The notes under the pieces were generated by a model, which saw only the letters and a list, made by a program, of their open reading frames with translations, searched no databases and was not told where the DNA came from. The position numbers and the translations under genes were made by a program. 64,000 nt of DNA, taken from Octopus sinensis (Eukaryota). The DNA is taken from contig NC_043006.1 of assembly GCF_006345805.1 (NCBI RefSeq), positions 104,656,001-104,720,000 of the forward strand, written 5' to 3'. Position 1 is the first letter of the stretch; every line of letters starts with the position of its first letter. Below, piece after piece: positions 11,731 to 63,126 of the stretch.

Positions 11731-12010
11731 ATATGGAAATATTTACAAAACATTTCATTTAATCTTTTCTGCAACTTAATTGTTTTTCTTAACTAGCCTT
11801 TGTTTTACTCTTAGCTGAAACGTCGAAAAGGCAGAAACCGGTACCAACCGTTAGAAAATGTATTTCAAGACAAAATTATTGTACGATTTTCTACCTTGTT
11901 TTATTTTCCTGATACATATCGACTCGTGCGTCACTTTCAACATCCGCGCGCACACACACACACACAACATTGCATTGTACTTACAAGTTTGTGTGTGTAT
12001 ACATATTTCT

Positions 12011-12158
12011 TATTTCTTTATTGCCTACAAGGGGCTAAACGTAAAAGGGACAAACAAGGACTGACAAAGGGATTAAATCGATTACATCAACCCCAGTGCG
12101 TAACTGGTACTTAATTTATCGACCCCGAAAGGATGAAAGGCAAAGTCGACCTCGGCGG
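12011..12158 (-). mobile_element. 5'-truncated SINE family A with 16-bp TSD
   Basis: TSD gtgtatacatatttct (11995-12010) / gtgtatacacatttct (12159-12174). Confidence 0.85.
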
Positions 12159-13824
12159 GTGTATACACATTTCTGTGTAGAGATAGAGCAAAGGACGAGT
12201 CATGATAATGATCATAATTTGTGCAATTAATATAGCGATACTAATGCTAGCAAATGACAACTTCCATGGATCGAAAACTGTTCACCTGATCTAAACGGTA
12301 GGAATACATTTTTACATTACTATGTTAGTACTTATTTTACAAAGACTTACAATCTATTTTGTTTGTTTTTTTTAGCTGTATTTTATTTTGTTTCTGTATA
12401 TGATGCAAGATATGGAAATGTCAGTTTTGTGTTTAAATGTTCCAAGATCTTCAGATCAATAGTTACAATTGCATTATTGTTATTTTCTTTTGCTCTACAT
12501 CCTGTTAAGTTTACGAGATAAATAGCTGCAGTCACATGTCAACAACCGCACTTCAATAACAAAAAAATATGAAGAAAAAATTGCCAACGACATCAATAAA
12601 AACGAACATTAGCTAATTTCAACTTGAATTTGTAGAAAAAATATTACATGTAAAATAAAAAAGAAATTTTTGTCTTCCAAATTATATTAAGGAGTGATGG
12701 AATTCACTTTAAGTAAGCGAAGCAGTAAATTAGTTATTCTGTTTACAATGTTATAAAGAACTAAATGGTTAATTATACTTCTCACCTAATTCATATCATT
12801 AGCCACTGCCGCATTTTTCAGCTGTTCTCTCTCTCTCTCTCTTTCCCACTTTTTCTCTTTTTCTCTCTGTCTCTTCCCCGCTCACTCTTTGGGTTGTTAT
12901 TTTAAAAATACTATTTGTTTACTTTTCTCTACACCTGGTATTCTCAGTCGTACATATCTCTGCTGTTGTAAATATCTCTGCTGCAATAATCAAGGAACAT
13001 CTTCAATGTCCGCTGTTAAAAGAAACAAAACAAATATATTAAATATTTCAAAGCAGCAAGAAAGGAAAATAAAGGGAATAAAAACCTAATTTTTCAAAAA
13101 GAAGAAAAAAAAACATCAACTCTTCTCTTTCTCTGTTTCTTCGTCCCCCTCTCTCAGACATCTGTCCTTTCACTCTCTTCCCAGGTATGTTTTGCATGGT
13201 TTCTGCTCATTCATTACCGATTTTTCGTTTTTCTTTTATTTTCGATAGATCTCTCTTACTTACATCTGGTGTTTATCGATATAATTCAGCTTCTTACTAA
13301 TAAACATCTAATAGTTAACACGCATTGTTTCATGTTGATATAATCCTTAAACTGATTAAATTGAAATAAGATTACAACCAACATATCGAAAATAACCATT
13401 GCATGTCTTATCTACAAGACAATGCAGTGGTATTGACCATGAAGCATCGATAACTAGATGCAATGAGAAATTTACAGATCGTTTTATTTGCATTAATTCA
13501 GTGACAAACAATAATTAATTTACGAAAGAAGAAGATGATAAATTGAGAGAAGAAAAAGATATAGTAAGTATACACAAGGTACAGAGGTATACACAACCAC
13601 CCACTCAGTTATGCATTGCTCTAAGGGAAACTCTTGTTGCACTCTAAAAATTTTTGTGACATACCAAATCACTTATGGCCTTACAGTGGGTGATTGCGTG
13701 GCTGAGGTACTGGAATAGACGGGTACTTTCCACAGCTTCATTTGATGCATCGGTGAGGCGCGAGGCAAAGGAAGTCAAAGGGTTCTTTCTCAACGGTGCA
13801 GTATATCGCAACGTATTGATTTCA

Positions 13825-14035
13825 ATTTTTGGCACAAGGCCTGCAATCTCGGAAAAAGGGATAAGTCGATTATATCGACCCCCAACACCCGTAGCAGTAT
13901 TGAACTGCTACTTACTTTTTTCGACCTCGAAAGGATGAAATGTAAAGTCAACTCCGACGGCATTTGAACTCAGAATTAAAAACGGACGAAATGTTGCTAA
14001 GAATGTTTCCTGGCGTGGTAACGATTACACCAGCT
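13825..14035 (-). mobile_element. Older SINE family A copy
   Basis: 'aagtcgattatatcgacccc...cgaaaggatgaaatgtaaagtcaactccgacggcatttgaactcagaa'. Confidence 0.75.
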
Positions 14036-14378
14036 AGCAACCTCAGTACCCCTGCAACGTATCAAAAGCCAAATGGAGAGCTCGCAGCATTTCTTTGCCT
14101 TTGTCTGAGAAACCCTTGGTCAGCATATAGAGATGCAACCGAATTCTGAATTAGTCGTGTGAGAAATCCTACAAGTCGTAGACTTATCTCTCACTGATGA
14201 TCGGCCACGGTGTTTTTATTTAGAAAAAAAAAAGATGATTAAGGACTGTCTTGATGAACCTTTATTAATTTATCCATTCATCTTAATATGAATGAAGCCG
14301 TACCTTTCTATGGAGTAATGATAAAACCCAGTTTTTGTACCTCGCTCAGATAAAATTGCAATACTGAGGAATTTATTT

Positions 14379-14595
14379 AAGGCGGCGAGCTGGCAGGATC
14401 GTTAGTGCGTCGAATAAATTTGCTTAGAGACATTCCGCTTGTCTTTACATTCTTAGTTCAAATGCAGCCGACGTCGACATGCCTTTCATCCTTTTGAAAT
14501 CGATAAAATAAGTACTAGTTGAGCACTGAGGTCGATGTAATCGGCATAAACCCTCCTCTGTACTTGCTACTCTTGTGACCAAATTTGAAACCAGT
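14379..14595 (+). mobile_element. Older SINE family A copy
   Basis: Starts 'aaggcggcgagctggcaggatcgttag'; central 'gcctttcatccttt..cgataaaataagtac'. Confidence 0.8.
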
Positions 14596-60793: not shown

Positions 60794-61596
60794 ATGAAGA
60801 CTAATTTGTAAACAAAATTTTGAGTTATAGAAGATTCAGTGATGAAAATCTTTGTAAATCCTTTCGACCTACAAGATATTGCAACCCTGAATCCCTCAAA
60901 GCAACACCCTACTATCTTGGTAAACAGCAAATATCACAGGCGCTGTGGCAGGAATGTTTGAAGGGAAGGTACAAGGTCGGAAGGAAATACGATTCCAGGA
61001 AAAAGGGCGTAATGACATTTAGAAGAGCCTACTTCTTTTCTTGAAGGGGACAATGCCTTTCAGAACCCAACCCCCACCCTGTGTGCGCTTCTGTGTTACA
61101 TTCAATGCCTCTGTGGCACTAAAAAGAGAAAAGATAATTTTCGATATATTTTGACAAAGAAGCCACTGGATATTCGTCAGTAAAACGTTCAGCATAAATG
61201 GTTTTTAAAAATACAACACACAAAGTATTTAAGACATATTAAACTTTTCTGGGTTATTCAGTAAATTTATACAATATATAATAACGATTAAAAAAAATAC
61301 AATTTGAAGTTATTTATATCTGTCACGGAGGTGTTGAAAATATAACGTTACGAGGAAAATAAAATAGACTGACACATGACAGTGGATTGAAAAACAATAA
61401 CTCACAAATTGTGTCAAATATCGATTAATGATATCATGGAAATGATAAATATACACAGATGCACAAACAAATGCAGACACATTATGCAAACACACGCTAA
61501 AAATTACATGCGAGTGATGACACATATGCATACACATATGATATCCACGTTCATCTCTCTCTCCTCCCTTCCTCCCCCTCTCTCTCCATTCTTTCT

Positions 61597-62218
61597 CTGT
61601 GTGGTAAGTGGCTTGCTTACCAACTACATGGTTCTGGATTCAGTCCCACTGCGTGGCATCTTGGGCAAGTGTTTTCTACTATAGCCTGGGGCCAACCAAA
61701 GCCTTGTGAGTGGATTCGGGAGACGGAAACTGAAAGAAGCCCGTCGTATATATGTATATGTAAATATATATATATATATATATGTGTGTGTGTGTGTGTG
61801 TGTGTGTGTGTGTATATGTTTGTGTGTCTGTGTTTGTCCGCTCCCAACATCGCTCGACAACCGATGCTGGTGTATTTACGTCCCCGTAACTTAGCGGTTC
61901 GGCAAAAGAGATTTGCTCGACTAAAGGCGGTGGTCCAGCATGGTCACAGTCAAATGACTGAAACAAGTAAATGAGAGTAAAAGAGAGCATATATATATAT
62001 ATATATATATATATATATATATATAGTTATATATATATGCTTGTGTGTGTGTGACCACCATCGGTTGACAACTGAGGTCGGTGTGTTTACGCCCCGGTAA
62101 CGTAGCAGTTCGACAAAAGTGACCGATAGGATAAGTACGAGGCTTATGTTCTCCGGAAGGCAGCGGTCCAGCAGGGCCGTAGTCAAATGACTGAGTCAAA
62201 GGAATTATAGAATAAAAG
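61597..62218 (+). mobile_element. SINE family B plus a second 3' half in tandem
   Basis: 61597-61985 near-full copy; 62041-62218 repeats the 3' half. Confidence 0.85.
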
Positions 62219-62523
62219 ACTATATATATAGATAAATAAATACATATATATATATATATATATATATATATATATATATATATATATATATATATATATA
62301 TATTAATCAATTTAGGGTAGCAAAAAATTCAATAGAAATTTATCGCTACCAGCGGCCTAGTGGAAAAGAGAAAATAGTCAAAGACTAAACTATATAAATA
62401 TAACAATTAAGGAGTGGCCTTAACAGGCCATTCGTCCACTAGAGAGAGCAGCCAGAACACAAACCGCCAAGCAGTATTAATTCAGAAATTAGGTGAAAAT
62501 TTAAAAACGTTTACCCTAATTCA

Positions 62524-62625
62524 TCTTTTAGACGATGCATCGTTTCTGTGTTTTTAAATGATAAACTAGCTTAATTAAATTAAATTAAGCTAATCTACCA
62601 TAGGTCACACTTCATCAGTAAAAGA
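62524..62625 (-). ncRNA. Type I hammerhead ribozyme (left-arm copy)
   Basis: Reverse complement of 63025-63126. Confidence 0.75.
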
Positions 62626-63024
62626 CCTGGGAGAGACAAATATACACGAGGCGTCTGTATCAATGCCTCCGGAATATCTGTCTTAACATTTTCAAGACCA
62701 ACGTGTTCGCGCCAACCCATCAGCAGTAAATATAAACTGCCGATTCAATCTCAGAATTAGTCAGAAAATTATCAATTAATCAAGTTAGGGTAGCAAAAAA
62801 TTCAATAGAAATTTATCGCAATAGAAATTTATGGAAATTTTCTATTGAATTTTTTGCTACCCTAAATTGATTAATTGATAATTTTCTGACTAATTCTGAG
62901 ATTGAATCGGCAGTTTATATTTACTGCGGATGGGTTGGCGCGAACACGTTGGTCTTGAAAATTTTAAGACAGATATTCCGGAGGCATTGATACAGACGCC
63001 TCGTGTATATTTGTCTCTCCCAGG

Positions 63025-63126
63025 TCTTTTACTGATGAAGTGTGACCTATGGTAGATTAGCTTAATTTAATTTAATTAAGCTAGTTTATCATTTAAAAAC
63101 ACAGAAACGATGCATCGTCTAAAAGA
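63025..63126 (+). ncRNA. Type I hammerhead ribozyme (right-arm copy)
   Basis: Stem I tctttta/taaaaga, CTGATGA, stem II gtgt/acac extended by a 19-bp G-U-containing hairpin, GAAAC, palindromic stem III ACGATGCATCGT, GUC triplet at 63117-63119. Confidence 0.78.

Follow-up and report, generated by a model that had tools for sequence, protein, structure and literature searches.

Palindromic type I hammerhead motifs in repeat families of Octopus sinensis and their predicted pairing between copies

Hammerhead motifs in the window and their families

A 64,000-nucleotide stretch of the 2.72-Gb Octopus sinensis genome (NC_043006.1, positions 104,656,001 to 104,720,000; here called the window, whose own numbering gives all coordinates) carries hammerhead ribozyme motifs with palindromic helix III in a series of repeat families, together with remnants of Penelope-like elements (PLEs). 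The GC content of the window is 35% and microsatellites are abundant; they also make up most of the output of a repeat finder, from which a 424-nt inverted pair alone was used. An earlier note on this DNA had listed GAA followed by self-complementary words, and these are present at, or within a few bases of, the places it gave, with GAA starts at 11834, 23819, 39513, 41134, 41719 and 63104 on the plus strand and at 29500 and 49350 on the minus strand. Three further places, 43956, 20228 and 50941, are decayed, as had been said. Families are named here after the GAA start (for example 63104, 49350 and 11834).

The words are enriched. GAAAC followed by a palindrome of at least 6 nt and GTH occurs 12 times on the two strands of the window, two of the 12 matches being inverted duplicates (two inverted-duplicate pairs), and none of 900 shuffled sequences (300 each at k = 2, 4 and 5; means 2.0, 2.5 and 2.6; maximum 8) reaches this number. 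The class with 4-nt palindromes is enriched less, with 13 matches versus 4.6-6.9 in shuffles. Four of the 13 ACGT-class matches (1746 minus, 35478 plus, 36845 minus and 42374 plus) are the heads of repeats resembling short interspersed elements (SINEs), with the core absent from the upstream 40 nt, and the matches at 37125 and 55363 sit inside other repeats. A full descriptor finds six complete motifs in the window, three with a canonical core (63104 plus, 62546 minus and 49350 minus) and three with U at core position 6 (4972, 30848 and 47496, all plus); in most window copies the 5' half is missing or mutated.

The missing half is supplied by genomic copies elsewhere. Ten window stretches were searched against the genome and eight gave families, with 126-1524 first-look candidates per family; these counts are lower bounds, as are the candidate numbers below, and 40 candidates were scored and 25-30 fetched for each family, with a bias toward query-like copies. 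The aligned copies show a complete type I hammerhead, with a CUGANGA / GAAA / UH core and helices I-III, in all eight searched families. Overall, the CUGANGA half is found for nine of the ten named families. The alignments give canonical cores for families 63104, 49350, 23819, 39513 and 41134, and variant cores for family 29500 (C3 or U3, in 8 and 8 copies), family 11834 (U3-A8) and a family called H (U6). The copies in the window, apart from those of family H, are as follows.

63024..63127, plus strand: intact type I hammerhead of family 63104, with 8-bp helix I, canonical core, 65-nt helix II domain and the 10-nt palindrome CGATGCATCG
62523..62626, minus strand: second intact copy of family 63104, in the inverted arm
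62391..63259, inverted pair (no single strand): ~473-bp non-coding unit in two 424-nt arms (98%), between (TA)n tracts
49334..49425, minus strand: intact hammerhead of family 49350, palindrome CGATCG, 63-nt helix II; at least 702 candidates
29484..29570, minus strand: damaged copy of family 29500, 5' strand of helix I lost, palindrome CGATCG, unrelated to 49350; at least 298 candidates
11811..11847, plus strand: damaged copy of family 11834 (U3-A8 core), palindrome CCGG, PLE gene remnant upstream; at least 126 candidates
23768..23834, plus strand: 5'-truncated copy beside (TA)n, family 23819; complete core in the family, with variable N7 and CGCG as palindrome; at least 393 candidates
39435..39528, plus strand: 5'-truncated copy of family 39513; complete core in the family, with helix II of 96-97 nt and CAGCTG as palindrome; at least 627 candidates
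41040..41165, fold-back (no single strand): two 3' halves, 41134 plus and 41071 minus, the 5' core gone at the inversion
41719..41736, plus strand: 3' half only, family 41719, an old family with palindrome CTTCGAAG and U4C-type core
20201..20243, plus strand: decayed member of the CTTCGAAG family
50910..50958, plus strand: strongly decayed, probably belonging to the CTTCGAAG family, no close relative found in the genome
43956..43970, plus strand: 3'-half-like word in an old repeat, relatives with CAGCTG
8399..8433, minus strand: minimal hammerhead of a family related to H, A6, U4C-type core, palindrome CG, helix I damaged

The cut site of family 63104 is predicted after 63119. The ~473-bp unit that carries this hammerhead occurs in head-to-tail tandems elsewhere in the genome, with at least 1524 first-look candidates. 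Across contigs of four organisms, for which all figures here refer to the variants listed, the changes to this hammerhead affect helix II, the 5' flank, N7 and H17. Family 41134 is also a tandem unit, with a 426-428-bp period, a full core, the palindrome CTGCAG and at least 917 candidates; the proposal that it is a sister of family 63104 was rejected, no nucleotide similarity being found. Locus L032, considered as a separate family with the same 10-nt palindrome, was likewise rejected, as it is a 72% relative of the 473-bp unit. Searches of the genome with the DNA of the 50941 and 41719 stretches returned the window itself alone, and a short pattern recovered the 41719 family: its 14-mer occurs 1433 times in the genome versus 56 for the reversed control, a U4C-type 5' core can be made out by eye in about 5 of 16 fetched pattern loci, to which 20228 can be aligned. 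No clear 5' core was seen among the relatives of 43956.

It is noted that a splice-acceptor-like CAG/GT stands directly before helix I in the 63104 family (window 63012-63025, behind a pyrimidine tract) and in the 41134 family (loci L203-L226). In Drosophila virilis Penelope, an intron end adjoins helix I (PMC4209133; this and the other papers are cited from the portions available). Two loose contig ends, from a run guessed to be RNA, resemble dense A>G / T>C versions of window 63026-63107; they hint at A-to-I hyper-editing of the inverted pair, which would change core adenines.

The association with (TA)n suggested earlier is borne out in an independent sample, where 68% of 44 hammerheads lie within 400 nt of (TA)5 or longer versus 35% of random places (p 5e-6). 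Rfam gave no hammerhead match at 63104 or 47496 with E up to 2, and none among the 150 of 233 window matches listed, plausibly due to the long helix II and the palindromic helix III. Several other features of the window were recorded. GAAA + CTGCAG + TC at 29817 on the minus strand is absent from the earlier note and has no relative among the fetched loci. A near-perfect 147-nt fold-back at 22313-22459, in which no hammerhead was recognised, is possibly another inverted PLE-type end. A 184-bp SINE-like unit forms tandem arrays at 35510-36059, 36342-36818 and 42407-42945 and is very common in the sampled loci; it contains a word that we take to be similar to a tRNA B box.

Helix III, helix I and pairing between copies

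All loci and the window gave 227 distinct hits, which were grouped into 44 clusters. Helix III is a perfect palindrome in 31 clusters, a palindrome with one central base in 5, self-complementary with a G.U pair in 1 and unpaired in 7. It is self-complementary, that is, in 37 of the 44, and a perfect palindrome in 17 of the 18 multi-copy clusters. The innermost pair is Watson-Crick in 34 of the 40 clusters with words of at least 4 nt (p 3e-14 versus an assumed 0.27, the clusters not being fully independent). Since a monomer hairpin cannot form this innermost pair, pairing between copies is indicated. Monomer hairpins of the 4-6 nt words are predicted to be unstable, at +2.4 to +6 kcal/mol. When two copies were co-folded, the double hammerhead came out as the structure of lowest energy for both 63104 and 49350, ahead of two monomers by 13.5 and 8.6 kcal/mol, respectively; in it, helices I and III join the two strands, and helix II forms inside each of them. 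The earlier note's description of PLE-type hammerheads with a palindromic stem III thus agrees with the family alignments and the clusters, and the predicted dimer design fits. PLE-associated hammerheads reportedly cleave as dimers, a finding attributed to Lünse, Weinberg and Breaker (2017).

Two clusters have unusual helix III words. One, L237 (minus strand, 709) with six relatives, combines a helix I of 12 bp with a helix III of 14 nt, the latter only partly palindromic but self-complementary at its centre; cleavage as a monomer is probably possible for this family. The other, L232 (minus strand, 697) with two relatives, is a U3-A8 cluster whose three copies have three helix III words, CATG, CGCG and CGTCG.

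The idea that each family has its own palindrome does not stand. In the window, the unrelated families 29500 and 49350 both use CGATCG, and the 37 self-complementary clusters use 22 different words, CG and CCGG four times each and CGCG and CATATG three times each. There are 23 shared pairs versus 21.0 for random palindromes of the same lengths (P for this few or fewer = 0.79). Mismatched helix III words are predicted to cost a median of 8.6 kcal/mol in heterodimers. As helix I, too, forms between the strands of a type I double hammerhead, specificity would come from both helices: families 49350 and 39513 share helix I and differ in palindrome, and 49350 and 29500 share the palindrome and differ in helix I. 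Compatibility in helix III is found for 64 of the 1332 ordered family pairs and in helix I for 54, with 13 pairs matching in both helices, and on this model the families are predicted to be ~99% orthogonal. The 13 double matches, several of which look like relatives, compare with 2.7 by permutation; being above the permuted value, they give no sign of avoidance, and a code as a selected trait is not supported by these comparisons of words.

Variation of the palindrome is seen among relatives of the 473-bp unit, with CGGTGCATCG (a G.U pair, in a 72% relative) and CAATGCATTG (a double compensatory change, possibly CpG decay, in an 80% relative); a further variant, CGGTATACCG, comes from one loose contig end. 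Different palindromes in one genome have been published for Aedes, with CGCG and GGCC in an alignment (PMC4209133).

Genome-wide load, family H and carrier elements

The genome was sampled in 120 evenly spaced 10-kb stretches (1.2 Mb) from the 22 largest contigs. A strict descriptor blind to the palindrome gives 14 canonical hits versus 1, 2, 0 and 0 in shuffles, and a relaxed one gives 45 hits, 26 of them canonical, versus 5, 2, 1, 1 and 1. Cores of the U3-A8 type are not enriched in the strict scan (2 versus 0, 3, 1 and 0 in shuffles), and such cores rest on the family alignment. Extrapolation to the genome yields ~30,000 motifs (strict), 58,000 (38-86 thousand; relaxed canonical) or 97,000 (70-132 thousand; with variant cores), where the intervals are Poisson and too narrow because a single array contributes several copies. 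The very large load that had been anticipated is therefore found, at ~6x10^4 canonical motifs and ~10^5 with variant cores. The window, with 6 per 64 kb versus 45 per 1.2 Mb, is ~2.5 times richer than the sample. In the axolotl 126,247 hammerhead motifs have been counted (PMC7229834), so the octopus load is large and not unprecedented; for the giant squid, 235 Rfam hammerheads are reported (PMC6962438).

Family H departs from the canonical A6. It is represented by short 3' fragments whose end at (TA)n is fixed, and four of these copies lie in the window.

47472..47507, plus strand: minimal hammerhead of family H, U at core position 6, palindrome CG
4948..4983, plus strand: family H copy (U6)
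30823..30860, plus strand: family H copy (U6)
59898..59933, plus strand: decayed family H copy

A 28-place pattern that allows A or U at position 6 has 13,398 genomic matches versus 0 for the control, and in the 100 exact matches listed U6 is present in every one, with all four bases occurring at N7 and A or U at position 17. In 63 fuzzy copies, of which 25 were chosen for likeness to one window copy, U6 is found in 61, departures from the commonest base are seen in 28 copies at N7 and in 13 at H17, and no other position is changed in more than 5 copies. The contigs of the four organisms agree: within the motif, changes above 8% are listed only at N7, H17 and two CpG sites, and none is listed at position 6. 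A natural A6C hammerhead variant cuts at <0.1 per minute (PMC3088659), from which family H is predicted to be slow or non-cutting, although its pattern of variation fits that of a maintained hammerhead. No report of a U6 hammerhead was found in the literature searched; the 2017 work of Lünse, Weinberg and Breaker lay outside that search and may cover U6 variants or heterodimer tests.

Coding remnants of PLEs, with reverse transcriptase (RT) and GIY-YIG endonuclease parts, are also present in the window.

9620..10787, plus strand: decayed PLE RT and GIY-YIG endonuclease remnant with many stops, which we take to be Neptune-like
18990..19316, minus strand: end of a second PLE with a GIY-YIG endonuclease, 32% to the open reading frame of L316; its Pfam hit, at E 0.0027, does not reach the curated cut-off

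Between the first of these and the 11834 hammerhead lie a (TTC)n tract and a common repeat (11303-11734). Another weak remnant, also GIY-YIG-like, is found at 1914-2096 on the minus strand. A placement of the hammerhead in the 3' repeat, past an RT and GIY-YIG gene, is seen for two families. In the CATRTG family, a PLE coding remnant is followed by a hammerhead on the same strand in L316 (~600 nt past the stop), L297 and L065; in family 11834, a same-strand endonuclease remnant lies upstream in 2 of 24 other loci (L119 and L121), in addition to the RT and GIY-YIG remnant in the window. The PLE copy at L316:3-2381, it should be mentioned, has an open frame of 615 codons, carries an inverted 5' duplicate and precedes the hammerhead. 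The RT fragments were not recognised by Pfam or PDB searches, and a minority of the members of their atlas look-alikes carry HTH_animal or RVT_1. For the peptide upstream of family H the atlas gave no support, and the PLE link there is a putative C-terminal motif.

The non-coding head-to-tail units, with periods of 473 bp and 426-428 bp, contain one hammerhead each. Their tandem or inverted layouts and their placement in (TA)n microsatellites are as in the PLE type, and the 473-nt unit is predicted to fold stably as a circle (z -5.2). None of the holders listed is recorded as RNA.

Readings of the motifs and comparison with known systems

We consider it probable that type I hammerheads are part of the 3' repeats of many PLE families and of the non-coding units of ~430-470 bp, and that cleavage would take place only on pairing of two copies of the same unit; the tandem units likely depend on PLEs. 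Read-through transcription of a tandem would place two hammerheads on one RNA. These would swap strands, with helices I and III formed between the copies, and cleavage would free a unit-length RNA, possibly circularised, which the RT of the element could insert at (TA)n. The lone truncated copies that make up the great majority would be silent. Because the palindrome of a family would have to pair with itself only, it likely drifts by compensatory steps, and low cross-reactivity between families would be a by-product and not a selected code. Several points weigh against this account. No coding PLE was found beside or between the four paired copies examined, and the PLE identity rests on motifs regarded as typical of PLEs, mutual tblastn, the sub-threshold Pfam GIY-YIG hit and atlas look-alikes (0.95-0.97). 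A clean double hammerhead was not obtained by co-folding for either family H or the 29500 copy, which is damaged, and neither prediction folded the 63104 monomer as a hammerhead. Its 10-nt palindrome can form a marginal monomer hairpin (-1.0 kcal/mol), so the 63104 family may need no partner. In addition, the clusters lack independence, and chance probably accounts for a few of the singletons.

That the matches arose by chance, or as by-products of fold-back DNA in a genome rich in repeats, is very improbable indeed. The SINE heads and other repeats among the ACGT-class matches and the Rfam blanks at 63104 and 47496 are what it would lead one to expect, but the shuffle controls, the genome counts against reversed controls (1433 versus 56; 13,398 versus 0) and the full cores in the family alignments speak against it, and it is refuted for nine of the ten named families, 43956 being the exception. 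An alternative of more weight holds that the palindromes, alone or with helix I, are a selected code that blocks cross-activation of unrelated elements or the cutting of host pre-mRNAs with several copies inside them. The large heterodimer penalty, the small number of pairs compatible in both helices, and families that share one helix and differ in the other are consistent with it, and at about one motif per 28 kb encounters are plausible. Against this, sharing is not reduced, and there are more double matches than permutation gives. The most abundant of the counted families uses CG, the shortest and most shared word, and a tandem provides the partner in cis, so a code is unnecessary; we regard it as unlikely.

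We hold equally doubtful the reading that in several large families, above all H, cleavage has been lost and the motif persists either as a structural signal, for RT binding or for defining the 3' end, or as a passive passenger. It draws on the near-uniform U6 of family H, on the slow A6C variant (PMC3088659), on PLE minimal hammerheads being weak in vitro, with other functions not excluded (PMC4209133), and on Naiads that thrive without hammerheads (PMC8557442). However, the strong variation of family H at the catalysis-free positions N7 and H17, with few changes elsewhere and agreement among the four organisms, weighs against it and fits a retained hammerhead fold. It is a possibility, if a tentative one, that family H works as a hammerhead with U6, a core base for which no published case was found, and this part alone is more likely than the selected code. 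The combined proposition, in which ~10^5 dimer-locked ribozymes form a lock-and-key set selected through helix III and helix I against cutting other families or host transcripts, and family H works with U6 in >13,000 copies and several related species, appears rather improbable. Either way, the U6 family would widen the accepted hammerhead core or represent a ribozyme turned into a non-cutting signal, and standard descriptors would overlook at least 13,000 copies in this genome. The dozens of natural, predicted-orthogonal dimer ribozymes with palindromes of 2-10 nt make homo- versus heterodimer cleavage directly testable, and so dense a set bears on what PLE hammerheads do, an open question in the field.

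No description of these families was found in the accessible octopus and cephalopod literature. The closest likeness is to the PLE minimal hammerheads (Cervera and de la Peña 2014, PMC4209133), which share the type I topology, an often extra base after A9, the palindromic helix III, many families per genome with mostly lone truncated copies, the U3-A8 variant and inverted pairs, the published ones 100-700 bp apart. In contrast to these, helix II here is often 41-97 nt, palindromes reach 10 nt versus 8 nt for the longest in the available part of that alignment, and family H has U6 where the same part shows A6 cores; the estimated load is also higher than the 2,000-9,000 per genome given there, with descriptors that differ. 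The non-LTR (non-long terminal repeat) retrozymes of animals (Cervera and de la Peña 2020, PMC7229834) similarly consist of non-coding units, a few hundred bases long and arranged in tandem, each of which contains one type I hammerhead, and dimer cleavage has been shown for those of the axolotl. The units described here differ in their length of 426-473 bp and their PLE-type inverted ends in (TA)n. A palindromic stem and a loop III that becomes fully paired in the dimer are also features of the double hammerheads of avocado sunblotch viroid and newt satellite and of the hammerheads of Aedes repeats (Perreault 2011, PMC3088659); those are single systems, and no family-level test of palindrome sharing was seen in the part of that report available. 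The design itself is thus already published, and the additions made here are long palindromes and helix II domains, the U6 family and two families of tandem units.

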